A DNA stretch of 64,000 nt from an uncultured Pseudomonadales bacterium (GTDB taxonomy: Bacteria; Pseudomonadota; Gammaproteobacteria; Pseudomonadales; Azotimanducaceae), in the NCBI GenBank assembly GCA_964634815.1, contig CAZWMD010000009.1:45549-109548 (forward strand), in the 5' to 3' direction. How positions within the stretch are numbered: position 1 is the stretch's first letter; the number at the start of each line of letters is the position of its first letter. Under the pieces are notes generated by a model, which saw nothing but the letters and a program-made list of their open reading frames with translations, did not search any database and was not told where the DNA came from. Shown piece by piece: positions 27,479 to 47,370 of this stretch. A program made the translations under genes and the position numbers.

Positions 27479-28078
27479 CTAGTTAAAGAACTCCATATTT
27501 TTCAACCGAGGCTCGAGTTCATTGGCCCAAATGCGGGGATTAATATCGCCAACCCGCTTGTACACAATTTGCCCCTGAGCATTCAGTAAAAAAGATTCCG
27601 GCGCGCCATAGACGCCGAGATCTACGCCGAGCTGGCCATCAAGATCTTCAATATGAAACTTATAGGGGTCACCATATTTCGCCAGCCATTGCCGGGCCAG
27701 CTCTGGCCTGTCTTTGTAGTTGACTCCAACAATCGGCAGACCATAGGTTTCCGAGATACGGCGCAGTTCATCATGCTCGGCAAGGCAGGTGGGGCACCAG
27801 GTAGCCCAGACATTGACCAATACAATTTGTCCCAACAAATTGTCCCGCGTTGCAAACTGTTCCGCCCCCCCAGTTCCCCGGGTATCCAAAAGTCTCGCTC
27901 GAAACTCCGGGAAGGGTTTGCCGAGTAACGCAGACGGTAGTTGCTTACGATCGCCCAACTGAAATCCAATATAGGCAATCACAACTATCGCCAGGAACAA
28001 CAGCAGCGGAATAAACAGCCTGCTGCGACTAATTATCTGGGGGGCATCAGACACTGCCGATATCTCCGGTTGTGTCAC
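27479..28078 (-). CDS. ccmG: thiol:disulfide interchange protein DsbE/CcmG
   Basis: The product has a TM anchor, the thioredoxin motif WATWCPTC and GVYGAPE. Confidence 0.9.
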
Positions 28079-30068: not shown

Positions 30069-30640
30069 GATCCGCTACCCTGTCGCACCGGCCATTCGGC
30101 TGCCGGCAATTCGTTGCCTCTGGGCGAGGCTCCAGCCGGCGTGACCGGGGTGGGCAGAGTGGGAGTCTTTGGCATGCCGCCAGGCGTCTCATCAGCAGCG
30201 CCTGGGGAATTTTGTGCCATGTTGGCTAGCTCCGGCGGCATGTAGTTTTCGTCATGCTTGGCCAGCACCTGTTCCGCAAGAAACACACCGTTATCATCTA
30301 GCTTACCTGTCGCGACAATGCCTTGGCCCTCGCGGAACAGGTCGGGAAGAATGCCGGTATAGAGGACGTCAAAATCGGCTCCGGCCAGATCAGAGAGCGT
30401 GAAACGGACTTCCAAACCATCACCGCCATGAGAATCTGAGCGTTTCACACTGCCTTCCTTAACCATACCCCCGGCACGAATCCGTTTATCAACCGGTGCC
30501 TCGCCTGAGACAATTTTGTCAGGTGGATAAAACAGATTAACGTTCTCTTCCAACGCCAGCAGCAGAAATCCAACCACAGCAGCGGCACCAAGAAACAGGT
30601 ATCCAATCAGAATCAATCGCTGCTTGCGCTGCGCTTTCAT
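30065..30640 (-). CDS. ccmE: heme chaperone CcmE (with extended Pro/Ala-rich C-terminal tail)
   Basis: The N-terminal anchor is followed by [21 protein letters not shown] and the heme-binding region [13 protein letters not shown]. The stop overlaps the ccmF start by 4 nt. Confidence 0.9.
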
Positions 30641-30855
30641 AATCCGGCCTCAAGATCATTGGATTGACCACGTCCGACGGCATTCTGCTGGCTGCGCTTA
30701 CGCTGGGCCACCAGCTCGCGACGAGTTTTACTGTGGGTGTGGACACTGTGCCACGCCAGACCCACTAGCACCAAGAAAGTCAGCCCGTAGGCGAGCCACA
30801 CGTAAAATCCGTGACTGCCCATCGCCAAAAATTCACCAAAGCTGTCAAACGCCAT
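30637..30855 (-). CDS. ccmD: heme exporter protein CcmD
   Basis: This small single-TM protein ([35 protein letters not shown]) lies between ccmC and ccmE. I chose the internal ATG of the tracked ORF 30637..30969, which overlaps the ccmC stop by 11 nt. Confidence 0.65.
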
Positions 30856-31669
30856 TGGGATGTTCCGCAGACGCCGACACAGACGATGACAAAGTTGGGG
30901 CTGCATCAAGCGCCTGAACCCAGCGCGTGTTGGCGTGCTGTCGGAGAACCAGGTTGCGCATTCGGGCAATCATTACCGTTGCCAGGAAACAATAAAATCC
31001 AAGTACATTGACTAGCAAAGGCAAATACATAGAAGCCGGCATCGCTGGCCGCTCTGTAAGAGACAGGCTGGAGGTCTGATGCAGCGTATTCCACCACTCT
31101 ACGGAGTACTTGATGATCGGTATGTTCACCAGCCCCACAATCGCAAGCACGGCACAGGCTCGCCCCGCTGCCTCTGCCCGAGGCACAGCCCCGCGCAAGG
31201 CAAAAAGCGCGATATATAAAAACAGCATGACCAGAGTGGAAATTGTGCGCGCATCCGATACCCACCAGGCCCCCCAGGTCGGCCGACCCCAGATGCTGCC
31301 GGATGCCAGCGCCAACGCGGTTAGCGCCATTCCAACAGGCACACCCGCCTCTAGTGCTATGTCGGCCATCTTCATACGCCAAACCAGCAACACCAATCCA
31401 GCAGCACCGAGCATCATGAAGCAGGATTGCGCAACGATTGCCGTCGGCACATGCACAAACATAATCCGGTAGCTGTTGCCCTGCTGGTAGTCCACTGGGG
31501 CAAACGCCAGGCCCCATACGGTACCGATTAACAAGAACAAGACCGCAGCACCGCCAAACCAGCGTTGCCAGCTGCCGCCTATCTCATAGAACCAGCGCGG
31601 CGACCCAAGCTTGTGCCAGAGCTGAGTCAGCCAGCCTTGTTTGTTCACCACATCGGTTTTGTTGTTCAT
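30845..31669 (-). CDS. ccmC: heme exporter protein CcmC
   Basis: The product is a polytopic membrane protein with the WWD-type motif [15 protein letters not shown]. Confidence 0.9.
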
Positions 31670-31731
31670 GCAAGCGTTCTCGCTGGTGCCTGGATGATTC
31701 TACTACAGTGCCGAGCGTACAGTGCCGAGCG

Positions 31732-32400
31732 CTACTGCTCGACACCAATCTTCAGAGCAGCGGCAATGGCGAAGGGGGCCAGTGTCACCGCTCCGGCCAG
31801 CAGTGCACACAAAATAAGTAGCGGAAACCTGGGTGCGTCGCCAAACAACAGGGTCTCACTAACCGCTGTACCAAAAATGAGTACTGGCACAAACAGTGGC
31901 AAGATAATAAGCGCAAGCAATGTGCCTCCCCGGCCCGCACCGAGCGTTAAGGCGGCACCAATACCGGACAGCAGCGTGATGGTTGGTGTGCCCAGTGCAA
32001 GGCTCAGCATCAACAGGGGTATTTGCTCCGCCGGCAAGTGCAACATCAGCCCCGCCAGAGGAGAAAGCAGCGTGAGCGGCGCCCCGGTAACCAGCCATTG
32101 CGCACAGGCTTTACCCAATACCGCCAGATACAAGGGTCGTGCACCGAGTACCAGCTGCTCAAGCGACCCATCATCGTAATCTTGACGGTATAACCCTTCC
32201 ACAGATAACAGCGCTGCCAGCAACGCAAGCACCCAGACAACTCCGGGCGCAATACGGGCAAGCACCGCCGGATCAGGGCCAACCCCTAACGGAAACAAAC
32301 TAACCACCAGCAGAAAGAAAGCCAGGGGATTAAGGATCTGGCTGGGCTGCCTCAGGTTAGCTCGAACATCGCGCGCCGCACTTGCCCAAAAAATACTCAA
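31732..32400 (-). CDS. ccmB: heme exporter membrane protein CcmB
   Basis: The 222-aa product is a six-TM-like protein lying between ccmA and ccmC. It contains FFLLVVSLFPLGVGPD. Confidence 0.9.
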   Translation of the reverse strand: MSIFWASAARDVRANLRQPSQILNPLAFFLLVVSLFPLGVGPDPAVLARIAPGVVWVLALLAALLSVEGLYRQDYDDGSLEQLVLGARPLYLAVLGKACAQWLVTGAPLTLLSPLAGLMLHLPAEQIPLLMLSLALGTPTITLLSGIGAALTLGAGRGGTLLALIILPLFVPVLIFGTAVSETLLFGDAPRFPLLILCALLAGAVTLAPFAIAAALKIGVEQ

Positions 32401-33068
32401 GGCCCCAAACTCAAGCCACTGGCATCGTCTGGCGCAGCAACGGTGGCAACGGAGGCAAGATCCAGGGTTATGCAGTTATCAAACGGCAGTGCCTGGTGAG
32501 TTGCACAGACGGCACTGCCGCCACGTTCCACATGCTGTGCAAGCACTCGCCCCAAAAGTCGAGATCCTGGTTTGTCGAGAGCAGTAAGAGGTTCATCCAA
32601 TAACCACAGAGGTGCTCTGGATACCAACAAACGTGCAAGCCCAACACGTCTTAGCTGACCCGCGGAGAGCGATGCGCAGCGTACTGATTCATAGCCTGCC
32701 AAACCCACCGACTCTAGGGCTTCGGTCAGTGAATTCACCTCAGCCCGTTTCAGCCCCACATCTGATGGGGTAGCACCAGGCGCATCGATGTGCGACAGGA
32801 ATCGCAGGTTTTCAATGGTAGACAATTGGCCGCACATCCCCGGCTTGTGCCCGCAGTAGAGCAAGGGCGCTGAGGAAATCTCGCCCGAATAGTCAGGGTA
32901 CAGACCGGCGATGCAACGCAATAACGTTGATTTCCCTGCACCGTTTGCGCCTTCTAGCGATACCACCTGGCCAGGATCGAGCCGCAGCTGCAGTTGGCTG
33001 AAAAGAACTCTGCCATCACGCACGCATTCCAGATCATCGACCTGCAGCAAGGCCTTATCCGCACCCAT
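32397..33068 (-). CDS. ccmA: heme exporter ATP-binding protein CcmA
   Basis: Walker A is GANGAGKSTLLR, the signature-like segment is LSAGQLRRVGLARL, and Walker B is LWLLDEP. Confidence 0.9.
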   Translation of the reverse strand: MGADKALLQVDDLECVRDGRVLFSQLQLRLDPGQVVSLEGANGAGKSTLLRCIAGLYPDYSGEISSAPLLYCGHKPGMCGQLSTIENLRFLSHIDAPGATPSDVGLKRAEVNSLTEALESVGLAGYESVRCASLSAGQLRRVGLARLLVSRAPLWLLDEPLTALDKPGSRLLGRVLAQHVERGGSAVCATHQALPFDNCITLDLASVATVAAPDDASGLSLGP

Positions 33069-34474
33069 CAGTCACTAACTACTCGATAGCACGGCTCATA
33101 AGTTGAACCGGGCAATTTCATGCGGCCTTGAGCGACAAAAGAACGCAACACTTCATCAAGCATACGGGTAATTTCCTTATCGCCCTTGATTTCAAGTTTG
33201 CCAAACTCACGGATGCGGGCCACACCTTCCGCCTTCACATTGCCACCAACGATGGCTGAGAATACACGTCGCAGATTGATCGCCAGTTCGTGAGCAGGCA
33301 GATCGCGGGTTAAGCCCAACGCCCGCACGTTTTCGTGGCTTGCATCAAAAGGCAGCTGGTGGCCCGGAGGGATATGCAACTGCCAGTTAAAGTAAAACGC
33401 ATCCCCGGTCCGCCGCCGCTGCGCTCGAACTTTCTTGACCGAGCGCGCCATGCGCCGGGCAACACCGCGGGCATCTCCCACAATGACCTTGTAGTAAGAT
33501 CGCGCCTGCTCCCCAAGGACCGTAGTGATCAGTTTGTCGAGTTGGGCAAAATACTCCGCCGCGTTTGCTGGCCCCGTGAACAGCAAGGGCAACTCAATGT
33601 GCTCATTCTTGGGGTCCATCAATATGCCGAGCATATAAAGCACTTCCTCAGCGGTACCCACGCCCCCTGGAAATACAATAATGCCGTGCCCCAAACGAAC
33701 AAAGGCCTCAAGGCGCTTTTCAATATCCGGAAGAATAACCAGGTGATTGACCATTGGATTGGGCGATTCCGCGGCAATTATCCCCGGTTCGGTTAATCCA
33801 ATATAGCGTGCACCTAACCGACGCTGTTTAGCGTGCCCGATGGACGCACCCTTCATGGGACCTTTCATCGCCCCAGGGCCACAACCGGTACAGATATCCA
33901 GCCCCCGGAGACCCAGGTGATAGCCTACCTCTTTGGTGTACTCATACTCTTCACGCGCAATAGAATGACCACCCCAGCAGACCACCAGATTCGGCCGCTG
34001 ATCCGGGTCCAGGAGCCGCGCATGACGCAAGATCTGAAATACAGAATCTGTAATCTCTTTGCTGGCAGCCTCGTCTTCATCCTCGCCAGTCAAGGTAACT
34101 GCAGGTGGGCGCACTTCGGTTGCCGTATAAACCACATCGCGCAGCACAGCAAACAGATGCTCGCGAACGCCCTCAACCATGCGACCGTCTACAAAGGCGG
34201 CTCGAGGGGCGTTACGCACAATCAGTTTCAAGCCGCGTGTTCGGCGTGACACCTCAACTGAAAAGTCGGTGTAGCGCTCAAACAACTCATGCGCGTCGTC
34301 ACCATCATTGCCCGTATTCAGTACCGCCAATGCACAACGCCGGAATGTCTCGAGCATCTCCAGATGTTCCGGCAACTGGGTGGCCTCAGTGAGCACCTCA
34401 ATCTCACGCTGACTCAAAAGCTCCATCGTGCCGCGCGGACCGACCTGGGTATCAACTGTTTTTCGTTGTGTCAT
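33068..34474 (-). CDS. ppnN: LOG-family nucleotide 5'-monophosphate nucleosidase PpnN (YgdH-like)
   Basis: The 468-aa product contains [16 protein letters not shown] and the LOG motif PGGVGTAEE. Its size and layout match E. coli PpnN. Confidence 0.8.
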
Positions 34475-34494: not shown

Positions 34495-36651
34495 CTAGTT
34501 AGAAGCTGAGCGTCGTGGAGTGAACTCCACACCCACGTAAAGCTGCCTGGGCAACCCCGGGAAATATCGGAAATTGCCAAACGCAAAGTCCGCACGATCA
34601 GCATATTCCTCATCAAGCAAATTTATCACCCTGGCAAACACGCGAACGTTATCCCTGACCTGCCAGCCACCACGCCAATTAAACACAACATGGCCATCAT
34701 AGTCGGCCGTGTTGGCTGCGTTGATGTAATGCTGGCCAACGCCCGTCAATTCCAGTTCAGATGTGAGGGCTGCCGTGGGTTGATATCGCCAGCGCGCACT
34801 GCCTAGCCACCGCGGAGCAGTGTCTACATCATCCCCATCACTGATGGGTTCAGCACCAAAGGAACCATCAAAGTCATACTTGTGTCTGGCATAGGACACC
34901 ACGATATCAAAATTGTGAGCCTCCCCAAGCGCATACTCTGCGCTTACCTCAATACCCTGGGATCGGGTCGCTCCATTACTGACGTTGAACCCTTCGCCAT
35001 CCCGGAATATGAAATCGTCGGTATCATCAAAATAGGCCGCAACCTCCACCTGCGCGGTCTCTCCAACCCAGCGGGCTCCCACTTCAAAGGAGCGCAGACG
35101 CTCGCTGTTCAGATCAGTGGTTTCCTGGCCATTTTGCAGACGATACAACTCCGTTGCCTGGGGTGGACGAAAACCGGTGCTGAAGGTGGCATAGGTGGCT
35201 AGGCGATCGTTCACCTCATAGTTCACGCCGAGTCGGCCTGCTACATTGGTGAAGTCATCTTCTCCCGATGGCGGCCGCGTATACAAACATCCGCCAAATC
35301 CGCACTCTGTGCCGTCTTCCCGAGTATTGCCCGTTAAGAAGAGATTCTCGTAGTCGTAGTTAAGTGTTTCGACGCGCAGGCTATGAACCAGCGACACGCG
35401 GTCTGAGAGTTGGTAATCCACATTATAAAATAATGCGGCCAGCAAACTCTCAACCTCGTAGTCATAGTGAAGGCCCTCGGGGCGTGTTTCTATCAAAAAC
35501 GCAGAGCCAAGAGTTGGACCTTCCTGATCTTCTTTTAACGCCCCATCCAGCAATTCGAGAGTGACACCTACGGTGGCCGAATAGCGCTCACCTACCCGGC
35601 CGAATTGGGCAGTTACGCCGCCACTGGTCTGGTCATTGGTTTCAAGTGGCTGACCAGGTAGAAAGTGTTGAAAGAAAGCCATGCCGGAACGTCTTATATA
35701 AGGTGTTATCGACAGAAATGAATTGTCGCCGATTTCCGTCTGCCAACGGCTGGATGCACGCAGGGACCAAGCATCTCGAAATGCTTCAGGATTTGGATTG
35801 GAATCCCGCAGATCATCGTCTTCAAAGGCCTCAAAACCAAGCACAAAGCCGCCTGTTTCCTGATTGAGGAGCGTGGCTGAAAGTAACGTGCTTACCTGCC
35901 AGCGCCCGACCTCAGCATCGTGATTGATTACCAGTTTTTGCTGCGAGTAACCCGTGTCATCACGAAAACCGTTGGTTGAGGTCGACTGTGCCTTAACGCC
36001 AAAGCTCTGGCCATTGATCTCGGTGCCATACTCCGCCCGGACTTGATAATAATCGAAGGGTCCACCCTCAACACTTAAGCCCAGGCCTGATTGCGGAGTT
36101 CGTTGCAATACGTTAATCGCGCCGTGAACCGCGTTGCCACCAAACAGGGCTCCGGCCGGACCACGCATCACTTCAATACCACTGGCTTGCTCATGGTTAA
36201 CCTCAAAGAGATTATTAATATTGCAAAACCCGGCGGGCCGAATAGGTACGCCGTTTTCCAGAAACAGAAACTCGCCACAAGCACCGGCGCCGGTGAGTAC
36301 AGGTGAGCGAATAGCGGTTAGATGCTCCTGGCCTGATCCGCGAGACACCCAGGCGCCAGCTACCCGCGATAGCGTTTCACTGATGTGCGTTGGGCGAATC
36401 AGGTCAATCTCGTCGGCATCAAGAGTGGTCAGAGAACCCGTGTCACCCACCCGACCTTCAAGACTGCCGGTGACCAGAATTTCTTCGATAGCCGTATCAG
36501 CAGTTTCCTGGTCACCTGCAAAGGTAGCGGAACTAACTCCTAACCCACCCACTAGCAGACAAGCGGAGACCCACAGGGTACAGGGCCTGTTCTTCTCTAA
36601 TGGGGACGTTAAAGAAGGAGCTAAAGACCGTACAGAGATAGAGATAGACAT
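34495..36651 (-). CDS. TonB-dependent outer-membrane receptor
   Basis: The product has a signal peptide ([18 protein letters not shown]) and plug motifs ([76 protein letters not shown]). A long beta-barrel follows, ending in LYVGVEF plus 8 aa. I set the start at the internal ATG 36651; the tracked ORF runs to 36780. Confidence 0.85.
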
Positions 36652-36828
36652 AGGTTGATCGGTTTTACTGCTTTTGACAAAAGACCGGTCGCAGGAAGAG
36701 AGCACTGCGGCCACGAACGTTAGGGTGTCTATCGTCATTCGTCGACAGAGCCGACGCAATTTAGCGAATTTCAGCGCCAAGAGATACCGAGGGTCCCATC
36801 AGGCTGCTGTATTGCAGGAATCCGCTGC

Positions 36829-39800
36829 CTACTCCCAGCCCCCAAACTGACTCATATCAAACCCCGTATCGGAGCCAGCATCTGCGTTGCGGGCCCGAAT
36901 ACCTGGCAATCGTTCGACAAAACGCCGTACCGAGTTTCGGTCAACTTTCAACCGGAACTGCAGGAAGGGACCATGCCGGGTGTAGTCCGCAGCAACAAAA
37001 TCATCATCGACAAAGCCGGTGAAGTTGTAGCCCAGTCTGACCCACATGTCGCGGCGCAGGCTGCGACTCACGGTCAGTCCGGCGCTGACACTCGCAACGT
37101 CACTGAAAGCCGCATAGGTCACATTGGCTTGTGATCCAAGGGTCCACTTGGGGGTCACGTCGTAGCGCGCAGCAAAGCCCAGGAGCCCGGTATAGCCACC
37201 AAAATGATCATCGCCAATCCGATCACGAACATACTTGTTGCCTAAATTCAGACTCCACTCCAGGCCTGGGCGGGGATCTTCGTCCGCATCCAGATTACGA
37301 TACGGATCGCGTTTGTAATTGATGTTCATGTTATGAACAATTTTTCGGGTACGCGTGTCGAAGGTTGAATCCAGCAAATCATCTTGACTGAGGTCGAGAC
37401 GGCTCAACGTAGTCCATCGCGAATTGACTGGCCGCCAGGCAATGCCAAAACGCAGGTCTGTGGTCCGCCGTTCAATGCCCTCGGCGGTATCTTCATCAAA
37501 TACTGCGCCAGACAGAGAGAAAATATTGCCGTCGCGCAGCTGATGACTGATACCAAGCAACAGGTTGGCACGATCACTGCGATCGCCACTATGGTATTCA
37601 ATTCGGGCGCTGGCATCCCACTGCTCACGGCGATAACCCAGACCAACAAAACCGGCGGTGAAATCTTCGTTCAATTGCAGTCCTGTTGTAGAGAGTGCGT
37701 TAGAAAACGCGCCACTTGCTGCCGGTTGTCGAGGTGCAAACACCAAACCATCAGGATCATCAGCCAGACCATTCTCTTCGAGGGTGTTAACGCGGTCCAG
37801 ACCTACATCCAGTAACCAGTAATCGCTGATCCGAAACTGCTGCAAAACACCGCTGGTGGCAAAGAGTCGTTCGGCGTTCTCAGAGATTTGCCGATCCACT
37901 CGGGTATGCACATTGGCTCCAATCCAGGATTGCGCTCGAATCCCGGCCCGGGTGTCCTGGGTATCCCGATCACTGCCCCAGGTGAACTCCTGTTCCGCAA
38001 ACACCGTGATGCCTTTGGGCAGTCGATAATCCACGCCACCGATCACCCGTGTTGGGAAATCGGCACTGTCACCACCGCTATTCAAGCCAATCTCGGCATT
38101 TCCTCTGAGTTGCATGCGGCCCTGAAACAGAGGCTGGGCGATACCTGCAAGAAGTTGTTCTGACTGCAGATTGCGTCCACTCGCGGCAGTTTCATCGACC
38201 TTGCGGGCACCTAACAGCAAACTGGTTGATCGAAGCCTGTAATCTGCTTCAACGCCATAGATGTCTCGCTCACCACCACCAACACCAAGGTCTTGCTGGC
38301 GCTGTGCTTCTGCACGAACAGTGAGTTCATTGCGAACGCGAACTTCCCCTTCCACACCAAAGCGTCGTAGACCCGTCGTTAACGCAGACTGTTGCCCCAA
38401 ACCGAAGCTTGCGTCTTGTTCTCTGAAGAATATTTTTCCGGCGATGCGCTCGCTCTCGTGTAAAAACTCAGCTCGAAAAGCTTCACCTTTGCCGGTTGCG
38501 TCCGAATCAGTGGCGGCAGCCTCGGCTTCTATTCGGTTACTTGCTCCAAATTGCCACTCAGCGTCGAGGCCAACCAGACTGCCACCAACACCAGGTGTTG
38601 CGTCGTCAACGTAGCTTATACCGACCTCGTTCTCGCCAAGACCAGGCGCGTAAGCCACCCGGCCTCCCGCAACAATTTCGTTCTGACGACCGTCAATCTC
38701 GTACTCAACTTCAATAAACTGTGGGTTAAAACTTGCATCCTGGCTTTCAATGGGTCTTTTAAAGATCAGCGTACCGGCGTCGTAATCGATACTGTAGTCC
38801 ACAAATCGGGAGAGACTTACAGTGCTTAGAACCTGATCCAGAGCAAATCGATCCCGCACAACGATACGAACACGTTCGCCGTTACGCACCAGTCCACCAC
38901 GACTCAATCGATACACACCAGAAGTGCCGTCTCCGGCAATGGTGTCGAGCAAGAATCCTTGATCAGTATTGGCGCCAAATACTGAAGCCTTCCAGTCGCC
39001 TTGATAGTAGTCGGCCTTAATGCCATTCAACCTGCGCGAGTAACGAGTAAGTTCACCACGGCTCAGTTGGGTATCAAAATCACCTACCAATAACGCCGCC
39101 ACATCTCGTTCCAGCTTCAAATACAGCTGCCGCGACGTGTCGTTATCAAAGGCCTGTTCTGCACCATCACCGTATAGCGTGTAGAACCGGTTGGGATCAA
39201 TCTGTCGGCGGAAATTCCGATCCTCAGATCGATCGCTGTCGTAACCCAGGGTAAGCAACCACTCGCCGCGAACCTGGCCCTTCGCGTAAAAAGACAAACG
39301 CCCATCCGTCATCACATCTTCCGGAGCATCGCCATCCAACGGCTGCTCGTGAGGCGCAATGGTATTGTACCCGAGGGTGCCTTCGGCCAGTCCAACCAGC
39401 ACCCATTCTCGAGCAACCGGCTTAAGTCGCGCGCGAATGTTCTTTTGCCTGTTGCGATCGAAAGCAAAGTACAGCTGCACCTCTCCCGCCTCGGTTGTTG
39501 GCTCAAGTGCGAGGTATGCCACGCCATCGCTACGGACTATATAACGCTGAATGCCCTGACGACTGCTGTCTGAGAGCTGGCTAAGCGCCTTGTTTTCATC
39601 CAGCGTCCGATAAGGTGCAGAAAGGTTGAATTCACCTGTCATACCCGGGCGGGCGGGCCGATCTTCTCTATCAAACAGTCGAACAGCTACAACCGGGGGT
39701 GTAATGCCATCCGCGATCAAATTAGACGACTCGAGCGCAAGCTCGGCGCGAACCGGAACACCAGAAAGCCAGGCTACCCGTTGGATAGATTCAATTTGTG

Positions 39801-42800
39801 TGCCGTCTTGGGTTTCGAATTGACTGGACAACATGTTGTATCCGTCATTTAGAACGACGTTCTTCCACAAGGTAACAGCATTACCTTGTTCACGGTTCAC
39901 AACGATGCTGTCAAAAGTCAAAGGATCAACAAGGGCGCCATTCACCAACAAACTTGGCCGCACACCCAGCTTGTGTTTCACCGCAACGGCGATCGCAGGG
40001 TTGGCTGGATTGGAATCGACCAGCGGCCAGACAAATTCGGCGGCCTCGTTCTGCGTCGCGAGCCACTGGGCATCAAAGTCAGGACGCGGGTCAGGCTCAA
40101 TATCGGGCAACACATCTGGCACCGGACTATGGATCGTGCGCTCCCCGGTTAGCTGCACAACGGCGACTTCACTGGCTGCGGAAATCGCACCCGAACCAGG
40201 CTCAGCAACACGAATTTTGACATCCGCCTCCTCGCCTGCGGCGACCTGCCGACTCTTCAGCGGTTGCGCTGTTCGTCGATCACTTGCATGCCACGCGCCC
40301 AGCGGCTTGTCCCTGTTAGAAGAATTTTCTCCGCCTTTGGGATTTCTTTCAGAAATACCCAGCGCGCGTTTTCTCGCAGCGCGTTGGGCTGGTGTTTGTA
40401 CATCTTCAGTCTCCTGCCAAACGATGCCGCGTTGATCAGCGCGAGCGTCTGAATCACTTATCGCCGTTATGTTCAAACTGCTGGGAGCGGCTGTGTTCAC
40501 ACTGGCCACAACCTGGGGTAGTTGATGCGCAAAGTCGCCCATTCGAAAGCGCGCTGTAGCGCGAGTTGCATAGCGCTGCTCGCGACCGGCAACCTTGGCT
40601 CGAAACATTAGTTGCGCAGAAAACTCTCCCTCTGGCAGATCGAGTTCAAAGAATACAAGGCCGTCTCTATCGGGGCCGGTGCCTGGCGTCGGCAATCCGT
40701 CAAAGGTTGCACTACCCCGCGTGTAGTCCAGCCCTTCGGGTAACAACACTTCCAGCCTGAAAGCGGACAGTGGCTGAGGGGCATCGCCTTGCAACAGGTA
40801 GCGATATTGCATCTCGCCGTTCTTGTAGCGAGCCAACAACCGGCCCTGCAGAGGGCCCTGCGCCACACCAGGAGCCTGCACTCGAAAGTCTGCGCGCCAC
40901 AACGACCCGCCCTGAAGCTCCACAAACTGTGTGGTCGATGATTCCGCGAAGCGGTTGTTGCGTTCACACGCCAGCGGCTCAAGGTCACGAGGCAGAGTAG
41001 ATACTTCCAAGTGAACAACATGAGCGCCCGGTTGCAAACCTTCAACATGGTATCTGCCCTGCTCATCCGTCAGCACAAAGGTACCGTCCTCGAGCAATAC
41101 CCGAACACCCGGTACCGGAACACCAGGCTCATTGCAGGGCCCGGCCAAAACCTGACCCACAATGGTTCCAAAGTTGCGTAACAGATCGTCCTGCACAAAC
41201 ACAACGGCTTGCGCACGGTTGCTTGTCGCCACGCCTTGCCCTGATACCCACGCGTTGTTTACAGCACGTCCTTCACGTGCACCTGGCGTAACCTCAACAA
41301 CATAGGTTAGAGCGAGTACTTCTAATGGGCCAATATCGGGAAGTGCAATCGTCAGCGACCGGCCTGTCGAATCAAATGTCACCGGAGTGCCGTTTGGCAC
41401 AGCGCCATCGAAGCGAAGTGAATCCTCGACCAGTCGGAAACCTCGAGGCAACTGGTCATGCAACACCAGCTCACCGAGTCGCCCGTTAGCCGGATTATTA
41501 ACATTCAGCGAATATTGAACAACATCGCCAACGGCAACCGTATCTCGGCTGGCGATCTTCTCAATGAAAACTTGCGCAGCCAAAACATCAACAGGCACCG
41601 ACCCACCTACCGAGCGCGCGTTTGTCAGTGTGAACACCTCGCCACGCTCAAACGGGCCTTCAAAGAACAACGAGAGCTCATCGTCGCTGGCCAGCGTAGG
41701 GAAACCGAGACCGGCAGGCGGCTCTACCAGCAATCGGTAGCTGCCCGGGGCAACGATAGGAAATGAGAATTGACCCGGAGCAAAGTTCGTCACCCTGCCC
41801 GCATCATCTGTAACAGAGCCGCCAGACACTACAGTAGATGGAAAGCCTGATACCCCATCTGCTGCCAGAACCGTCACAGGTTGCCCGGTCACCGCATCAA
41901 CAAGTGTGATTCGGACACCATCAACCAATGAACCATCTACCGCGTTGAAAACCAGGCCCGTGGCGTCAATACCACCAACCAAATCAATACTGTCCTCTTC
42001 GTCATCCGGATCAATGTAGCTAAACAAAATATCCGCGCCATTAGGACTGGATACCAAACAATCACCTGGAACTGAGGCACCCTCAGTACTTTGGATGTAA
42101 CCAACAAATACCCCACTGGAAAGATCCGTTTCGGTTAGAACTATTGATTCGTGATCAGCCCCATTGGCACTCGAAATGGATACTCTCACCGTATCTACGG
42201 CGTTCAAAGAGAGATCCTGGTCGGGGTCTACGATCTCAACGAACAGCGCATCTCCCGCGCTATAGAGGGTATTCGTAACAAGGCTAAGATCGGTCACTGG
42301 ATAATCGATTCCCACAGAATCAGTTGCGGGAGCGAGCACGATATCGGAGCCTCCTGCAACACAAATCCCCTGAGGATCCGACACCAGAAGGTCGCCACCG
42401 GTTTCTCTGATGGCACGGTGCAAACGCCCGATTGCCGGGGTTGGCGGTTGCAACTGCAGATCTAGCGGAACGTCGACAACAAACAGTCCTGATTGCCCTA
42501 CTGCAAGTGGGTCACCACGCGAGCCCGGTTCCAGCGAAAAGGGTGCGCCAGAAAGCGTCTGCAGTTCGGCGTCGGTGACTACCGATGGAAACACGTATCG
42601 CCCGGGGGGAACTATTTCATAGCGATACTGACCGGGTGCCAGTGTTGGAAAGCGGAACTCCCCAGTACCAAAGGCATACACCGTGCCTGAAGCATCCGTA
42701 ACTGTGCTTCCACTTAATAGCGTAGAAGGAAAAGCGCTAGCCCCATCGTCTCCGAATACAGCTGCTGGATTACCTGTCGCTGCGTCTATCAGGGTAATCA

Positions 42801-44148
42801 GAGCACCGTCTATCAAGTGTCCGTCAACGGCCCCAAAAACGCGGGAGCGCGGATTTACAACCGCCGCGGTACTTGCAAATATACTGCCGTCGATGGCATT
42901 GGTGTAGGTAGCAAAGATCTGGTCGTTTGGCGCAACAAAGAGCACGCAGTCTCCCGGCGCAGAAGATACAGCTACCGTTTGAATGTAGCCAAAAAACTCA
43001 CCGGTGTCGGTTCCGGTTTCGGAAATTGCAAGCGTTTCAGCATCACCCGCCGTTCCTTCCAGGCGAACAAACACACTATCTATCACCGCAGGGTCAAGAT
43101 TAGCTCCCGCGTCGCTGACACGGAAGAAAGCAGTGCCTCCTGCGCGATAGACTGAGGTAGAGCTTAAGTCGATGGAAAGCGGAAAAGTGTAGAGAGTGCC
43201 GTCTGCTTCGTTTGAAGTTGCGATCGCAGCAAAGCTCCCTGACGTGGCAGCATTATCACTACAGGATGTCAGTGGGACATTCTGTGGCGACCCCAGCACA
43301 CTGTCAGGAGCAAAGAAATCTATAACGGCAGTGTTAGCCGGCAATCCCACCTGCAAGGTATGGGGAGTGCTAATCGTCAATCCACCCTTATCGGTAGCTG
43401 TAATGACTACAGTAATCGGCGGACCTGGAGGTAGGCTAACCCCCGGCGCTAACCGCAGCTCACTACCGACTACAACAAAACGATTGTCGTCAACGGTGAA
43501 CGTGTGGTTGTCTACATTATCCGGGTCGGTAACGCTGAGCGGCCCAATAACTGCACCCGGCGCGTTTGGAGGAACAGATGTTGCCTCAAGAGTAATGCTG
43601 TCGGGCGCTTCGTTAACATCGAGAATGGTTACAGTCACCGGAACAACAGCGCTTTGTCCGGCGGCATCAACAACCGTCACCTCAAGAACGATAGGCGCAT
43701 CAACTTCAAAGTTAAACACCGTACCAGGCGCAAGTTGCAGACTATCGCCATCAACAATAAATCTGTCATCGGATACGCTAAAGGTGTGCGTATCCGTAGA
43801 ATCAGTGTCAGTAGCATCAAGCACACCCAAAACGACGCCGTCGTCGTTTTCCGGTACTTCAAAATTGGTAAGCGTCAATCCCGTCGGCGGTGAGTTACCG
43901 GCGAATGGGTCGGCCACTATGGTGACACTACTGGAGGTCTCAACGGGCGAACCAGAAGCCAGATAGCTCGCGGTAGCCGTGTTGGTAATGGGGGTGTTTG
44001 GGTCGATGGCGTAAGCCAGAGAGGCACACAGCATCTGCAAAACAAAAATTACCGCGGAAAGAGGCATACCTCCAGCACGGCACGGCGTTACCGCCCCGAC
44101 CTTGCTGGAGGATGCCTTATCCATGCGGTACTTATCGACCGAAAACAC
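36829..44148 (-). CDS. giant (2439 aa) secreted multidomain protein: cadherin-like repeats, duplicated Ig/CarboxypepD_reg-like modules, DUF11 domains, Big_1-like domain and a C-terminal beta-barrel-like region of about 860 aa
   Basis: The signal peptide is [20 protein letters not shown], and the start (GTG 44148, ATG 44124 or ATG 44067) is unresolved. Residues about 85-268 form two cadherin-type repeats ([28 protein letters not shown]...[29 protein letters not shown]). Residues about 318-845 form two paralogous modules. Residues about 858-985 look like DUF11 ([34 protein letters not shown]). Residues about 993-1050 look like CarboxypepD_reg ([10 protein letters not shown]...[32 protein letters not shown]). 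Residues about 1460-1562 look like an invasin/intimin Big_1 domain ([22 protein letters not shown]). From about residue 1575 to 2403 there are alternating amphipathic strands with aromatic ends ([39 protein letters not shown]). Confidence 0.75.
   Translation of the reverse strand: [2439 protein letters not shown]
41614..43197 (-). repeat. intragenic duplication: two paralogous modules of about 220 aa (residues about 318-550 and 626-845) in the giant protein
   Basis: The two modules align by eye. [55 protein letters not shown]...PGDCVL matches [55 protein letters not shown]...[58 protein letters not shown] matches [52 protein letters not shown]. Confidence 0.8.
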
Positions 44149-44165
44149 TTACTACTAACTCTGCC

Positions 44166-45521
44166 CTAGGCGTCGTTAATAGTTACGAAATACAGGACAA
44201 ATGCTGTCTCTTGAGGCGCGCAGGTCCCTAGAGTCGCAGATGACACATCGATTTCGTTAGGATCAGCCGTGAAGGCTTGTGACGTGTTGGTATTGCTACA
44301 AGTAACAATAGTAACCTGATCGTCATTGATCGAACCGGGCAACGTGAAGGTTACGTTGTCGACTTCGGCTGACGGATCCACATCTATCGTCAAGCTGGTC
44401 GGCATGTTGATAGTTTCAGTAGACGTATTGCCTACAGAGACTGCCGGCGTTGGAATGTTATCTCGCAGGAAGGACATCGTAATCGTGCCACCGCCCAAAA
44501 GTTCATCATTCTTTGCCGCAATCACATACATCACAACAGCACCAGGAATCGCTTTGGGGTTATCGCCCGAAACCGCACCTGCAGCATCGAAAAACTGCGC
44601 TCCCGAAATCGGATCCCAGACTGTTTGCGAAGTTTTCACCAGCAATACGCCCGGAGGCAGAATAATGTATGCACTGGTATCTGAGTCCTGACCATTGTTG
44701 GGAACGTCTGTTGTTGTTCCACCGGTCGACGCGTTGAAGTCATAGACCAGGTCTTCTGAGGAATGCGGACCAACATCTGCAAACACAACTTCTACCGTGG
44801 CTGGATCATCAGCAACGTCCACTGCGCCGGTAAAACCGGGAGCGTTGTTGCCGTTGTCATCACCCTCTATTGGCTCTTGGGCGCCCGTATAGTGGGTCGC
44901 AACCAACGAGTAGGTTGCAATCTGATCAACGGTTGCGGTGCCCGGAACATCTACAACCACCAGAACTGATGTAGTGATGTCTTCGCCAAGCTGTGAGCCA
45001 AGGCCAGCGTCCAGATCGTACTCACCAGAGGCGGTAGGCACCAAAACGGTATCGACGCCATCGTCGAACAGTCCATTTCCATCGGTGTCAATCGCTACCA
45101 GAATGGCATCGTCATTAAACGAAGGAAACGGACCCGCTCCTGTTGGAGGACCCGCAAAGGCGCTAACGCCTACACCGTCCTGATCGACAACTCCCAGCAA
45201 AACCGAGGTTGCATCGTTACCCGTGTTGGTGACATTGAATCGCAGTGCAGGAACGCCAGTTTGGCCGGCAAATTCCTGACCCGGCGCGACACTAACGTAG
45301 TTAGAGTCCGTCGCTTCAACGTTAAGAGCAAGCTTTCTATCTACCACAAAGGTAGCATCAGCTGTCTCGGAGATAGGCGGGCCTCCTCCTACGGTGTATT
45401 CCAATGACACACTGTTAACGACACTGGATCCAGCGTCGGTGCCCGCAGCAAAAGACGGGATAGACCCGGCCACTGCGCAAGCTACGATCAGGCCTTGCCC
45501 AATCTTTCTGAAGTACTGCAT
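44166..45521 (-). CDS. secreted 451-aa acidic beta-rich protein, paralogous to the 367-aa protein; C-terminal DUF11-like domain
   Basis: The ATG is preceded by GGAAGGA plus 6 nt. The signal peptide is MQYFRKIGQGLIVACAVAGSIPSFA. The mature N-terminus AGTDAGSSVVNSVSLEYTVGG is shared with the 367-aa protein. A Ca-binding-like DxDxDG segment is present (AIDTDGNGLFDDGVDT). The C-terminal part (KAIPGAVVMYVIAAKNDELLGGG) resembles DUF11. Confidence 0.7.
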   Translation of the reverse strand: MQYFRKIGQGLIVACAVAGSIPSFAAGTDAGSSVVNSVSLEYTVGGGPPISETADATFVVDRKLALNVEATDSNYVSVAPGQEFAGQTGVPALRFNVTNTGNDATSVLLGVVDQDGVGVSAFAGPPTGAGPFPSFNDDAILVAIDTDGNGLFDDGVDTVLVPTASGEYDLDAGLGSQLGEDITTSVLVVVDVPGTATVDQIATYSLVATHYTGAQEPIEGDDNGNNAPGFTGAVDVADDPATVEVVFADVGPHSSEDLVYDFNASTGGTTTDVPNNGQDSDTSAYIILPPGVLLVKTSQTVWDPISGAQFFDAAGAVSGDNPKAIPGAVVMYVIAAKNDELLGGGTITMSFLRDNIPTPAVSVGNTSTETINMPTSLTIDVDPSAEVDNVTFTLPGSINDDQVTIVTCSNTNTSQAFTADPNEIDVSSATLGTCAPQETAFVLYFVTINDA

Positions 45522-45636: not shown

Positions 45637-46185
45637 CTATTTCAGTCTCACGTTGAACGACACCGTTCCTGTTGCACCCGGCTCAAGGCCTGGCGCATAG
45701 ACCCAACGAATGGTCGTATAGTCACTGGCATTCGCTGGAGCTTCAGAACCGTTTTCCGAGACGCGAAGTGCACTTGGCGGACCAAACTGCGCTCCTGCAT
45801 CTACGGAATAAAGAATTTCGGCGGCCTCACCAACGGCAGTGCCTTCCAGATATTCGGTATTACCCGGTACCGGGTTGGTTATAACTACCGAACCGGCATC
45901 AACAGCCTCTTCGCCGACATTGGTAAAGCGCACGGAGTAACGAAGTTCGTCACCCGGAATAACGCGATTGGGTGGCACCAGGCGGCGCTGAACGCGGCCC
46001 TGATCATCTACATAGCGGTCAACCTTATGTACTTCGTTAACCAGCTCTACGCGAGCCTGCGCAAAGGGAGCGGCAAAACTTGCGCTCACTGCTAATACAG
46101 CGGCAACCTTTGTGAGCGTCGAAAGGCATTTCTTCTGCAACAGTGATTTGCAAAAGTTTTGATGCGAACATTTTTTAAGAAACAT
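45637..46185 (-). CDS. secreted single-domain DUF11 (TIGR01451-like conserved repeat) protein
   Basis: The signal peptide ends in AVSASFAAPFAQA. The DUF11-like core is VIPGDELRYSVRFTNVGEEAVDAGSVVITNPVPGNTEYLEGTAVG...YTTIRWVYAPGLEPGATGTVSFNVRLK. The start is probably the second ATG (46185), which is preceded by GGAGGA; the tracked ORF starts at 46200. Confidence 0.7.
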   Translation of the reverse strand: MFLKKCSHQNFCKSLLQKKCLSTLTKVAAVLAVSASFAAPFAQARVELVNEVHKVDRYVDDQGRVQRRLVPPNRVIPGDELRYSVRFTNVGEEAVDAGSVVITNPVPGNTEYLEGTAVGEAAEILYSVDAGAQFGPPSALRVSENGSEAPANASDYTTIRWVYAPGLEPGATGTVSFNVRLK

Positions 46186-46266
46186 AGATCCTCCGATCAT
46201 TTGTGTTTGTCAGCCAATCCCCTGCCTGCAAAAACAGGTGGGACCTCTTTGGGTAAGGAAAGGCAT

Positions 46267-47370
46267 CTACTGGACAATGGCCTGATACTCGATAGTCAGA
46301 CTCGTGGGGCCAGAGACATCACCAAAGTTCACTTCAATGGTGTCGCCGGTTACGCCGGTGTTATCCACACCAGCAGGTAAAAGGTCGTCGTCAGCCTCTT
46401 CGCCCGCGGGCAAACCAACAACGGAAAGAGAATTTGAGGCGTACAAAAGCTCGCCAGGTACAGGATCGGTAACCACTAGCGACTGCGCAGAACCAGTACC
46501 AAAAAGCTCCACGAGTACGCGGTAGCTAACAACACTGCCAGGCACGACACTGCTGCCGCCAGAAGGGTCGGCGATATCAAAAGCAGTTTTGGTGATGGTG
46601 ACGCCAACGTTGTTAACCAGATAGTCGTGACGATCAGCAAACAACGGATTGGCCAGGTTGTAGCTCAGACCTACCATCGCATCGACAGTACCCGACCCAT
46701 TCGAGCGATTGTCACCGAGACCGCTGAAGACATCACCGACCCCAGGAAAGCTCACCTGTGTTGGGTCATCAGTTCCTGCACCGGTGACAATCGTTGTGGC
46801 CACAGCACGCAATTCGAGCAGCGCTGTTTCATCAACCGACACGCCAGGTGGAATGTCTGCAGTAACGTAAATCAAGAGAGATTCGTCGGGCACCAAGACT
46901 GGGTCATTGGTACCCGCGATGTACTCCTCATCACCGCCAGGGCCGGACTGGAAGCCAGCAATACCGTTGGATTCGAGATACAGGGTGTTAAAAACAGGGT
47001 CAAAGTCGTCACCGCCCAGCGCCGTCTGGCCAATCAGCCGAAAGGCTTCCGTGCCGTTACCCAGGTTAGTCAGCGTGTAGCTCTGAAGAGCCTCGATCTG
47101 TCCCGCAACAACTCCCACAGAACTGGCATCAGCGCTGATGACAGAGACTTCCAATAGCTCTTGAACAAAGAAGGTGTTGAGGCTGCTGGCAGTAAGGTCT
47201 GCGCCACCCAGGGTGTAACTCAGAGTGACGGTATTTGGGACTTCCTCGCCTGCGCCAGTTCCACCGGCCCAGGAAAGATCGGCGCACAAACACACAAGCA
47301 CGGCAAAGACCCACGCGATACAAAAGTGCGCTGGTCTATGAAATAGCCCTGTGTAAGCGGTGCTTTTCAC
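46267..47370 (-). CDS. secreted 367-aa acidic beta-rich protein, first gene of the cluster; C-terminal DUF11-like domain
   Basis: The GTG start is preceded by AAGGA plus 4 nt. The signal peptide ends in CADLSWA. The mature N-terminus is GGTGAGEEVPNTVTLSYTLGG. The C-terminal DUF11-like segment is VVPGSVVSYRVLVELFGTGSAQSLVVTDPVPGELLYASNS. Confidence 0.7.
   Translation of the reverse strand: MKSTAYTGLFHRPAHFCIAWVFAVLVCLCADLSWAGGTGAGEEVPNTVTLSYTLGGADLTASSLNTFFVQELLEVSVISADASSVGVVAGQIEALQSYTLTNLGNGTEAFRLIGQTALGGDDFDPVFNTLYLESNGIAGFQSGPGGDEEYIAGTNDPVLVPDESLLIYVTADIPPGVSVDETALLELRAVATTIVTGAGTDDPTQVSFPGVGDVFSGLGDNRSNGSGTVDAMVGLSYNLANPLFADRHDYLVNNVGVTITKTAFDIADPSGGSSVVPGSVVSYRVLVELFGTGSAQSLVVTDPVPGELLYASNSLSVVGLPAGEEADDDLLPAGVDNTGVTGDTIEVNFGDVSGPTSLTIEYQAIVQ

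Follow-up and report, generated by a model that had tools for sequence, protein, structure and literature searches.

What does the C-terminal part of a 2,439-aa protein, encoded in 64,000 nucleotides of DNA from an uncultured Pseudomonadales bacterium (the window), form, and what might it do at the cell surface? The original prediction, made by eye, proposed that Ig-like arrays give way at about residue 1575 to barrel-like strands, interrupted early by a compact soluble β domain as in ushers, the whole being fused to its own adhesin stalk and closed by a 36-aa non-barrel tail. Every peptide that it quoted was found at its reported position in the giant ORF. From its N-terminus, the encoded protein consists, in order, of a signal peptide, a conserved motif, cadherin-like and CarboxypepD_reg-like repeats and a CLIPPER/DUF11 domain, after which come an SdrD_B-like domain, a low-complexity linker, one or more Ig-like domains, the barrel and the tail. 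The leader is hydrophobic and ends ...ASLAYA, followed by IDP; signal peptides of this protein and of the small proteins described below were called by eye only. Domains of the cadherin-like, CLIPPER and SdrD_B types are characteristic of the stalks of surface fibrillar adhesins. Surface fibrillar adhesins with such domains include one with an OmpA-like anchor (PMC12617251). Features are given in window positions.

36829..44148, minus strand: giant ORF, 2,439 aa
43915..44007, minus strand: mature N-terminus of the giant protein, residues 48–78, IDPNTPITNTATASY...SSSVTIV
41230..41565, minus strand: complete CLIPPER/DUF11 domain of the giant protein, residues 862–973

A predicted barrel of about 38 strands

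The Ig-like domain that directly precedes the barrel, the barrel and the tail (residues ~1450–2439) are one conserved module. When residues 1450–2439 were modelled by AlphaFold2 from a 39-sequence alignment, the model had a pLDDT of 74.4 and a pTM of 0.61, with most barrel strands at 80–93 and the lowest confidence at the start of the barrel (52 for strand 1 and 35–70 for strands 2–4). Its secondary structure comprises the Ig-like domain up to residue 1577 and then 38 long strands between residues 1583 and 2400, in agreement with the switch that had been placed at about residue 1575: the outer-membrane-type meander begins near residue 1580. The turns after even-numbered strands are 2–7 aa long, with a single exception of 16 aa, and the long loops (28, 37, 13, 70, 15, 11, 36 and 15 aa) all occur after odd-numbered ones. 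Such alternation is classical for outer-membrane proteins and fits an even strand count, namely 38. The prediction for residues 1583–2400 is therefore an outer-membrane barrel with about 38 strands, whose closure and orientation in the membrane are inferred.

39418..39801, minus strand: Ig-like domain directly before the barrel, residues 1450–1577, present in the module of all homologues
36949..39402, minus strand: predicted ~38-strand antiparallel β-meander (outer-membrane barrel), residues 1583–2400, from AlphaFold2, Foldseek and covariation
39382..39402, minus strand: strand 1 (VLVGLAE), family motif [DE]W[IV][LM]VG[LFI][AL][ES]G

Covariation, calculated over strand columns only in an alignment of 340 sequences (Meff 281), independently concurs with AlphaFold2 and Foldseek on the meander. 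The strands form a next-neighbour antiparallel meander in the AlphaFold2 model, and by covariation 30 of the 37 adjacent strand pairs outscore all 665 non-adjacent pairs; adjacent strands account for 64% of the top 50 contacts, versus 5% by chance. The supported pairs include those that span long loops, namely 1–2, 3–4, 7–8 (over the inserted domain, with a score of 0.88), 25–26 and 37–38. No covariation signal was found for two tandem barrels or another alternative closure, the best non-adjacent pair scoring 0.48 as against an adjacent mean of 0.61. The closing pair, strands 1 and 38, scored 0.18, which is background level; strand 1 is the most conserved strand and almost invariant (mean column entropy 0.73 bit).

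All but one of the 50 matches listed by Foldseek against the PDB, with E-values down to 7e-4, are membrane β-barrels (SlpA, MtrB, LptD, SprA, TonB-dependent receptors, FimD and VDAC/Tom40), the exception being ApoB100 (probability 0.47). The barrels matched are closed ones, but the TM-scores were just 0.1–0.3, so the module has no close structural template. By sequence, no Pfam or NCBIfam model matches the Ig-like domain and barrel; the C-terminal 990 aa matched no PDB chain by phmmer and gave only chance-level PDB profile matches (glycoside hydrolase, invasin). Among 39 homologues, PF13505 (OMP_b-brl) was matched weakly in 8, and others weakly match DUF2490, OmpA_membrane and Porin_4, but Pfam models of the usher, LptD, autotransporter and BamA type were matched at E ≤ 1 neither by the query nor by the 39 family members. 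A signal peptide (by eye), diderm hosts and a next-neighbour antiparallel meander, all found here, are general marks of outer-membrane β-barrels.

That these residues might instead form a soluble β-sheet or β-solenoid array with no membrane barrel is scarcely credible to us. The strict meander of 38 long strands, with short turns alternating with long loops, Foldseek matches that are essentially membrane barrels alone, the weak matches of homologues to outer-membrane Pfam families, a β-signal-like motif on the last strand and the confinement of the family to diderm phyla all argue against such an array, for which one could cite the background-level score of strands 1 and 38 and the moderate hydrophobicity of the hydrophobic faces. 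The strands alternate amphipathically as expected, yet control Ig strands look alike, and because the same hydrophobic-face pattern occurs in soluble Ig strands we left it out of the evidence for a barrel. The AlphaFold test that had been suggested for residues 1450–2439 returned a 38-strand meander with an insert.

The insert, the last strand and the tail

39127..39237, minus strand: loop L2, residues 1638–1674, ...IDPNRFYTLYGDGAEQ...
38725..38934, minus strand: inserted 70-aa β-sandwich domain, residues 1739–1808
36943..36972, minus strand: last strand GPFLQFRLKV, residues 2393–2402, β-signal-like motif
36832..36942, minus strand: C-terminal tail, DRNSVRRF...GGWE, 37 aa

The compact soluble β domain expected early in the barrel is present in the AlphaFold2 model between strands 7 and 8; its limits, drawn before at about residues 1731–1815 (nt 38704–38958), are narrowed to residues 1739–1808 (nt 38725–38934). 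Its five short strands sit on the long hairpin of strands 7 and 8 (residues 1719–1738 and 1809–1833), its mean column identity is 69% as compared with 42% for the whole module, and it was modelled alone with a pLDDT of 82.6. Since it follows strand 7, the parity of turns and loops places it on the long-loop, putatively extracellular side, and its covariation with long loops likewise argues for that side and not the periplasmic one. By covariation the insert couples most strongly to loops L2, L7, L13 and L19 and to strands 6 and 8 at their loop-side ends; the Ig-like domain is coupled to the periplasmic side, at the short turns T1 and T2. Loop L2, which is highly conserved and modelled with low confidence by AlphaFold2, is coupled to the insert as well as to the Ig-like domain, making it a candidate lumen-lining or plug loop. 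Foldseek searches of the PDB with the insert gave nothing at E < 0.1 and no usher plug, the best match being the phage T7 fibre N-domain (E 0.11); PDB profile and Pfam scans gave chance-level matches only (peptide deformylase, DUF2460). The Ig-like domain is weakly Big_1/invasin-like (invasin at E 0.47 in the PDB profile search; Big_1 in 2 members).

In ushers, the barrel has 24 strands and the plug sits between strands 6 and 7, on a periplasmic turn, where it occludes the lumen. The suggestion that the protein is a divergent chaperone–usher usher with a plug, fused to its own fibre, arose from the early β-domain insert, and the module has further points in common with FimD and PapC: a large barrel, an Ig-like domain before it, and co-encoded Ig-like subunits without a terminal strand, which therefore seem incomplete, like pilins. 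FimD/PapC are also among the Foldseek matches (ranks 33, 46, 47 and 50), although with TM-scores of ~0.2 they are weaker than those of LptD, SprA and TonB-dependent receptors. The usher-plug reading did not survive closer inspection and is now highly unlikely: the usher family PF00577 was not matched in Pfam, PDB sequence or PDB profile searches, nor in any of the 39 members at E ≤ 1; about 38 strands are predicted instead of 24; the insert comes after strand 7, at the side of the long loops, and its fold gave no match to usher plugs; and there are neither CTD1/CTD2 domains nor a PapD-like chaperone gene, PapD_N and PapD_C having no match in the neighbouring genes.

The generic β-signal of outer-membrane barrels has an aromatic residue at the very C-terminus. 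The last strand of the module carries the family motif G-P-[FY]-x-[KQ]-[FL]-R-x-K-F, which ends in Phe in 55 of 65 homologues and in Val in the giant protein; in all 65 homologues scored the motif is internal and followed by a tail of 9–36 aa. A non-barrel tail after the last strand, of 37 rather than 36 aa, is real and not peculiar to the giant protein: tails are a family feature with a median length of 15 aa. The first ~12 aa of the tail (DRNSVRRFVERL) match its conserved start, a short helix with the family-wide pattern DQxSVRxxVxWF, and the remainder is lineage-specific and predicted to be disordered.

A widespread family and its four-gene cassette

Homologues of the C-terminal region were found down to E 1e-293 over 97% of its length. 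The family comprises at least 5,036 protein clusters at 50% identity, of which 2,589 cluster representatives match the module at E ≤ 1e-30; the 150 representatives listed all carry it at the C-terminus, with a match over its full length. At least 573 GTDB species loci bear the module, in Gammaproteobacteria, Desulfobacterota, Nitrospirota and Lentisphaeria and in diderm phyla only. Literature searches gave no description of the module family or its cassette and no characterised member.

What precedes the barrel varies. Loci of Nitrospirota and Deltaproteobacteria encode the N-terminal part and the barrel in two separate genes, which indicates that the stalk–barrel fusion is dispensable. In about one fifth of the homologues listed, the peptidoglycan-binding domain OmpA_C separates the CLIPPER/SdrD_B part from the barrel, so that at least that segment would be periplasmic; the giant protein's own subfamily has no OmpA_C. 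The original view of the barrel as fused to its own adhesin stalk therefore holds in part.

The barrel gene is the last of a four-gene cassette. Among the 50 loci with enough upstream DNA, 49, from four phyla, have p367-, p187- and p451-like genes directly upstream on the same strand.

44166..45521, minus strand: p451, Sec-exported, two domains, N-terminal GT.AG..V.N motif, paralogue of p367
45637..46200, minus strand: p187, Sec-exported, single DUF11/CLIPPER-type domain
46267..47370, minus strand: p367, Sec-exported, two domains, N-terminal motif

All three small proteins are CLIPPER-like (hhalign probability 94–97%), and p187 matches TIGR01451 at 30.9 bits, above the cut-off. When the complete CLIPPER/DUF11 domain of the giant protein (residues 862–973) is taken as the reference, each is one strand short of a full domain: the C-terminal CLIPPER-like domains of p367 and p451 are without the last strand, and p187, which has no N-terminal motif, stops at the penultimate one. 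The conserved motif at the mature N-terminus of the giant protein is common to the p367-like and p451-like proteins, and in all three it looks like the missing strand. The neighbourhood scanned contained no T9SS genes.

Possible roles of the barrel and cassette

Because the family almost always stands behind three small secreted Ig-like proteins, its members probably act as pore or anchor in a surface-assembly system not described before, a role that is inferred. In the reading that we favour, and hold about as probable as its negation, the module with its very large barrel would serve as both conduit and anchoring collar of the four-gene surface cassette. The Ig-like domain (residues 1450–1577) would lie at the periplasmic rim of the barrel and the short tail helix in the periplasm, and the long loops, with the 70-aa insert in loop 4, would make an extracellular cap or gate. 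Both the giant protein's stalk, at its N-terminus, and the three small subunits would pass through the barrel to the surface and be held there. By the standard formula for barrel geometry, 38 strands would give a Cα diameter of ~7 nm if the barrel is circular, a width that could let folded Ig-like domains through. The split-gene and OmpA_C-bearing forms would fit a periplasm-anchored stalk that passes through a separate barrel.

Such a system is best read as resembling an usher or the T9SS translocon SprA in logic and not in ancestry. SprA/Sov (PDB 6H3I/8GL8), with 36 strands, is the largest solved single-chain barrel and, as proposed for the module, is a giant barrel wide enough for folded cargo and capped at its extracellular end by loop inserts; it appears at ranks 6, 11, 13 and 24 of the Foldseek matches. 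In contrast to the module, with its C-terminal barrel of ~820 aa, SprA has ~2,400 aa of barrel and cap, occurs in Bacteroidota/FCB only, works with PorV/Plug partners and takes C-terminal CTD signals, whereas the signal-like motif shared in the module's cassette is N-terminal. The two have no sequence similarity; we rejected assignment to SprA (TIGR04189), there being no NCBIfam or Pfam match and the family occurring in Pseudomonadota, Desulfobacterota, Nitrospirota and Lentisphaeria.

Instead of exporting anything, the protein might be a plug-and-barrel or envelope tether, its lumen filled by L2, the Ig-like domain or a small protein and its N-terminal domains remaining in the periplasm to tie the outer membrane to peptidoglycan, as in SlpA or OmpA. 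This is possible if doubtful. A barrel of ~7 nm needs some occluding part, for which the highly conserved L2, covarying with the insert and the Ig-like domain, is at hand, and OmpA_C before the barrel in about one fifth of the homologues listed is equally compatible with a periplasmic location of the small proteins and the entire N-terminal region. LptE fills LptD and MtrA fills MtrB. The best Foldseek matches, SlpA/SDBC, MtrB and LptD, also point this way: LptD–LptE and MtrB–MtrA (26 strands) are the top-ranking class, large barrels that need a lumen filler and have the partner encoded nearby, and Deinococcus SlpA, with the best E-values (8agd, 7zgx, 8ae1), joins a 30-strand barrel to a coiled coil and an SLH domain and so combines a barrel with a peptidoglycan-binding domain, like the OmpA_C-bearing homologues. 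SlpA differs in its peptidoglycan-binding module and linker and in being trimeric, and has no sequence similarity to the module. With LptD and MtrB there is likewise no sequence relationship, and the module lacks a β-jellyroll, an LptE-like lipoprotein and a cytochrome, its partners being DUF11/CLIPPER-like; LptD (PF04453) was rejected on the absence of an HMM match, an N-terminal domain that is Ig-like and not a β-jellyroll, and a Foldseek likeness that is generic (TM 0.12–0.2). The tether is further opposed by the surface-adhesin character of the cadherin-like, CLIPPER and SdrD_B domains, by the lack of OmpA_C in the giant protein's subfamily, by the split-gene forms, which would have no tether, and by the three further secreted paralogous proteins with a common N-terminal motif, which exceed the needs of a plug.

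It is unlikely that the protein is autotransporter-like and exports its own passenger alone, the upstream genes encoding unrelated surface proteins. The cassette is kept in 49 of 50 loci, the passenger's N-terminal motif recurs in the small proteins, and passenger and barrel are separable into two genes; autotransporters (PF03797) and inverse autotransporters gave no HMM match and have 12 strands as against 38. The likeness to types Va and Ve lies in a signal peptide and adhesin-type domains followed by a C-terminal barrel in one chain, as in type Va, and in the Big_1-type Ig domains that adjoin the barrel in intimin and invasin.

The conduit-and-collar reading can be extended, in a form that we offer tentatively and consider rather improbable, to a new surface-fibre pathway of diderm bacteria, independent of chaperones and sortases, in which subunits are completed by strand donation. 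The CLIPPER-like domains of p367 and p451, without their last, Asn-bearing strand, would receive it in trans from the N-terminal hairpin of the next subunit (GT.AGT.I.N.A...Y...SN.V), and a Lys–Asn isopeptide bond between subunits might lock the joint. Able to accept a strand but with none to donate, p187 would form the tip; the giant protein, a potential donor whose own domain is complete, would form the base, with the ~38-strand barrel as export pore and collar. The truncated domains and donor motif make this a directly testable model of a new kind of fibre.

Should the barrel prove to be a pore for export or anchoring, folded Ig-like surface proteins would have a new way across the outer membrane, besides ushers, type V systems and the T9SS. 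The family is large and spans several phyla without a Pfam or NCBIfam model, and is tied to a cassette of secreted isopeptide-domain-like proteins. Its predicted ~38 strands exceed those of any solved single-chain outer-membrane barrel, and a substrate of 38 strands poses the question of how BAM handles it. To our knowledge, barrels of 38–40 strands exist as predictions only. Three 38-strand barrels have been predicted in D. radiodurans (PMC9388160), and a large superfamily of 38- and 40-strand barrels was predicted from contact maps by Solan et al. 2021 (PMC8346858); compared by description only, that superfamily, with its families 002/003, may be the same family as the module.

Architecture and family of the giant protein

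The giant protein, which ends in the module studied here (an Ig-like domain, a predicted barrel and a tail), has the following features outside it:

36829-44148, minus strand: giant ORF, 2,439 aa, with the module in its C-terminal third
Residues 95-176: weak cadherin repeat (Pfam/NCBIfam)
Residues 862-973: DUF11/CLIPPER domain (Pfam/NCBIfam)
Residues 1007-1049: SdrD_B/CarboxypepD_reg-like domain (Pfam/NCBIfam)
40024-40416, minus strand: charged low-complexity linker of ~130 aa (residues ~1245-1375)

Past residue ~1050, neither Pfam nor NCBIfam recognized anything, and PDB sequence searches with the C-terminal part were empty. The subfamily-specific N-terminal extension (41800-43300, minus strand; residues ~280-850) contains two long internal repeats, each closing with a CarboxypepD_reg/Cna-B-like unit (G.F.FP...PG.YR....PP); upstream of these lie two cadherin-like repeats that carry calcium-site-like DVNEAP motifs.

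When the last 990 residues were used as the query, 922 proteins were found at E ≤ 1e-3 (8,000 candidates scored), with identities of 35-58% across ~97% of the query. An exhaustive profile search identified 5,036 cluster representatives (50% identity), of which 2,589 reached E ≤ 1e-30; the module was matched end to end in 150/150 representatives listed and is C-terminal in nearly all. A GTDB scan of one genome per species located at least 573 loci with the module, in Gammaproteobacteria (Pseudomonadales, Woeseiaceae, and Steroidobacteraceae, including the cultured Povalibacter uvarum DSM 26723), Desulfobacterota, Nitrospirota, Lentisphaeria, and Zetaproteobacteria. The N-terminal parts of the homologues vary, comprising DUF11, CarboxypepD_reg, SdrD_B, OmpA_C, or none of these. 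Peptidoglycan-binding OmpA_C (PF00691) is present in about a fifth of homologues among the matches listed, where the fused order is CLIPPER, SdrD_B, OmpA_C, module; the OmpA_C slot corresponds to the ~130-aa linker of the giant protein. One Nitrospirota and one Deltaproteobacteria locus (L003 4902-11036; L024 640-6578) encode the giant protein as two adjacent genes, the first an N-terminal stalk (SdrD_B, CarboxypepD_reg, CLIPPER) ending in OmpA_C and the second a ~1,000-aa protein that is the Ig-plus-barrel module alone.

Predicted strand meander and its putative closure

Residues 1450-2439 were modeled together with 38 homologues by AlphaFold2 (protein number = query residue + 1449), giving a mean pLDDT of 74.4 and a pTM of 0.61. 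The predicted secondary structure comprises:

Up to residue 1577: Ig-like domain
Residues 1583-2400: 38 long strands
Between strands 7 (1719-1738) and 8 (1809-1833), both unusually long: inserted domain of five short strands
After the last strand: tail of low confidence with a short helix

Turns behind even-numbered strands are 2-7 residues long, with a single exception of 16, and the long connections all lie behind odd-numbered strands (28, 37, 13, 70, 15, 11, 36, and 15 residues). Such alternation is the usual signature of outer-membrane barrels, whose periplasmic turns are short and external loops long, and it agrees with an even number of strands that starts and finishes in the periplasm.

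Foldseek matched the model to membrane β-barrels in the PDB essentially throughout (E of 2e-7 to 7e-4), including SlpA/SDBC (30 strands), MtrB (26), LptD (26), SprA (36), and TonB-dependent receptors (22), but with TM-scores of only 0.1-0.3; the ushers FimD/PapC (24 strands) appeared only at ranks 33 and 46-50. The model is thus barrel-like, without a close relative among solved structures. Among 39 family members, eight matched PF13505 (OMP_b-brl) weakly and others matched DUF2490, OmpA_membrane, YfaZ, or Porin_4; none matched the Usher, LptD, autotransporter, or Bac_surface_Ag models.

Covariation was analyzed by mean-field DCA over the strand columns of 340 family members aligned to the query (effective number 281). 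Sequence-adjacent strand pairs had a mean score of 0.61, compared with 0.26 ± 0.06 (maximum 0.48) for the 665 non-adjacent pairs, and 30/37 adjacent pairs exceeded every non-adjacent one. All pairs separated by long loops were also above (1-2, 0.50; 3-4, 0.57; 5-6, 0.51; 13-14, 0.85; 19-20, 0.77; 25-26, 0.75; 32-33, 0.63; 37-38, 0.65), and strands 7-8 scored 0.88 despite the 70-aa insert between them. Adjacent strands were joined by 64% of the top 50 contacts, against a chance expectation of 5%. The covariation thus supports a 38-strand next-neighbor meander independently of AlphaFold. The switch from Ig-like to barrel-type strands claimed by the original prediction is borne out, with the Ig-like domain ending at residue 1577.

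No other closure pointing to two tandem barrels was seen in the covariation. The score for strands 1-38 was 0.18, equal to background, with power limited by strand 1 being the least variable (0.73 bit), although that strand retains a signal with strand 2; AlphaFold2 confidence was lowest in strands 1-4. We therefore take closure of the sheet into a ~38-strand barrel as the parsimonious inference rather than as a result. SprA, with 36 strands, is the largest barrel solved, and barrels beyond that size have so far only been predicted: families of 38 and 40 strands by Solan et al. 2021 (PMC8346858), and three 38-strand predictions in Deinococcus mentioned by von Kuegelgen et al. 2022 (PMC9388160). 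The family described here may be one of those predicted.

Insert, loop L2, and C-terminal tail

Conservation within the module peaks in the 77-residue stretch around the insert (residues 1739-1808), where mean column identity is 69% versus 42% overall and the family consensus reads DGTSGLYRLSR..IV.NSE.I.IETRDRF....L.R.LDY.IDY..GTLFFK.PV. Modeled alone, the insert is a compact five-strand β domain (pLDDT 82.6), for which searches of PDB sequences, Pfam, and Foldseek yielded no significant match; the top Foldseek match was a T7 tail-fibre N-domain (E 0.11), and none of the 50 matches listed was an usher plug. In a second covariation run, the insert coupled most strongly with strands 8 (15 sd) and 6 (10 sd), each at its loop-side start, and with loops L7 (11.5 and 8.2 sd), L2 (8.6 sd), L13, and L19. 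As these couplings all fall on the long-loop face, the insert is part of a loop-side, probably extracellular, cap. An usher plug, in contrast, is suspended on the periplasmic side, from the turn that joins strands 6 and 7. Thus, of the usher-plug-like topology proposed from the sequence, the compact β domain inserted early in the barrel stands, whereas its loop-side position and fold are unlike those of usher plugs.

The Ig-like domain couples to short turns T1 and T2 and to L2, a loop located as follows:

39127-39237, minus strand: loop L2 (IDPNRFYTLYGD...), residues 1638-1674

L2 ranks with the most strongly conserved segments of the family but is modeled at a pLDDT <50, and it covaries with both faces, through the loop-side insert and the turn-side Ig-like domain. 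It is a weak candidate for a lumen-spanning or lumen-lining element. The analysis establishes a giant OMP-type meander with a loop-side inserted domain and a turn-side Ig-like domain.

The last strand of the giant protein, GPFLQFRLKV, ends in Val and is followed by a 37-residue tail, so the predicted non-barrel tail holds, at one residue more than the 36 stated. A tail of 9-36 residues (median 15) was present in 65/65 homologues with a locatable last-strand motif (G-P-[FY]-x-[KQ]-[FL]-R-x-K-[F]). Its first 12 residues here (DRNSVRRFVERL), predicted to be helical, agree with the family opening DQxSVR[DE]xVxWF, and the remainder is lineage-specific. The tail is thus a family trait and not an anomaly.

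The cassette and its proposed working

Three small genes lie directly upstream of the giant gene on the same strand:

46267-47370, minus strand: p367, 367 aa, with a leader peptide
45637-46200, minus strand: p187, 187 aa, with a leader peptide
44166-45521, minus strand: p451, 451 aa, with a leader peptide
43915-44007, minus strand: mature N-terminal motif of the giant protein

Pfam identified nothing in the three at E ≤ 0.01, and two of them matched DUF11 weakly, below the cut-off (E ≤ 1); p187 is above the TIGR01451 cut-off. By profile-profile comparison, p367 and p451 are paralogous over their full length (E 4e-59), and p187 and the C-terminal halves of the other two match the CLIPPER domain of the giant protein with probabilities of 94-97%. 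Of 50 related loci in which 3.5 kb or more of upstream DNA is present, 49 carry homologues of these genes immediately before the giant gene, in the same order and on the same strand; all three occur together in 43 of those loci, across four phyla. The three secreted CLIPPER-like proteins constitute an invariant cassette.

All three stop exactly at the end of the penultimate strand of a complete CLIPPER domain, a point corresponding to residue ~954 in the giant protein, and so lack the last, Asn-bearing strand. The motif GT.[AS]GT.[IV].N.A...[YF]...SN.V, which opens mature p367, p451, and the giant protein, resembles this absent terminal hairpin, which in the domain of the giant protein itself reads AVNNAWVSG...SNRAQAVVFV. 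Across loci L001-L083, the strict pattern is present in 40/50 p367, 40/49 p451, and 51/58 giant-protein orthologues, the remaining seven of which show it by eye, and in 0/54 p187 orthologues. A missing strand together with such a motif is the pattern expected of donor-strand complementation, whether within one chain (in cis) or between chains (in trans); the motif could instead act as a signal that sorts proteins to the barrel. Complementation could possibly be accompanied by a Lys-Asn isopeptide, potentially intermolecular; the p367 and p451 families both conserve the Asp and the Lys of the first strand. Archaeal threads combine donor-strand complementation with isopeptide bonds (PMC9715654).

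If the sheet closes, the ~38-strand barrel would be ~7 nm across (our calculation from the standard geometry formula and textbook values). BAM would insert it in the usual orientation, and it would serve as an outer-membrane conduit and collar, with the giant protein's stalk and the small subunits forming the surface assembly and the loop cap (insert, L2, L7, and L13) as the gate. Two observations speak for a conduit rather than a simple covalent anchor: stalk and barrel can be separate polypeptides, and some stalks have a periplasmic peptidoglycan anchor; an Acinetobacter CLIPPER adhesin likewise has an OmpA-like anchor (PMC12617251). The main rival, in which the barrel would belong to a periplasmic tether or to a plug-and-barrel complex of the LptDE or MtrAB type, seems rather unlikely to us.

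In kind, we rate the module as an outer-membrane barrel or translocon. Of the features that define ushers, LptD, autotransporters, and SprA, it lacks all that could be tested; its likeness to ushers and SprA is loose, that of a wide gated barrel adjoining genes for Ig-like cargo. The literature searched contained no description of the module, insert, or cassette. A new assembly pathway is a real possibility for the cassette.

Directly downstream of the giant gene is a TonB-dependent receptor (34495-36780, minus strand; Plug and barrel, 761 aa), a neighbor that recurs in 15 close loci and is absent from distant ones; the association may therefore be incidental or confined to the lineage. Farther downstream (28047-34474, minus strand) are housekeeping genes for the PpnN nucleotide nucleosidase and cytochrome c maturation (ccmA, B, C, E, F). 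Divergently upstream of the cassette is a 2,169-aa hybrid signaling protein (48993-55502, plus strand; Ser/Thr kinase, AAA_16, GAF, PAS, HisKA, HATPase, receiver, and Hpt domains), adjoined by an OmpR-type response regulator (48140-48847, plus strand).
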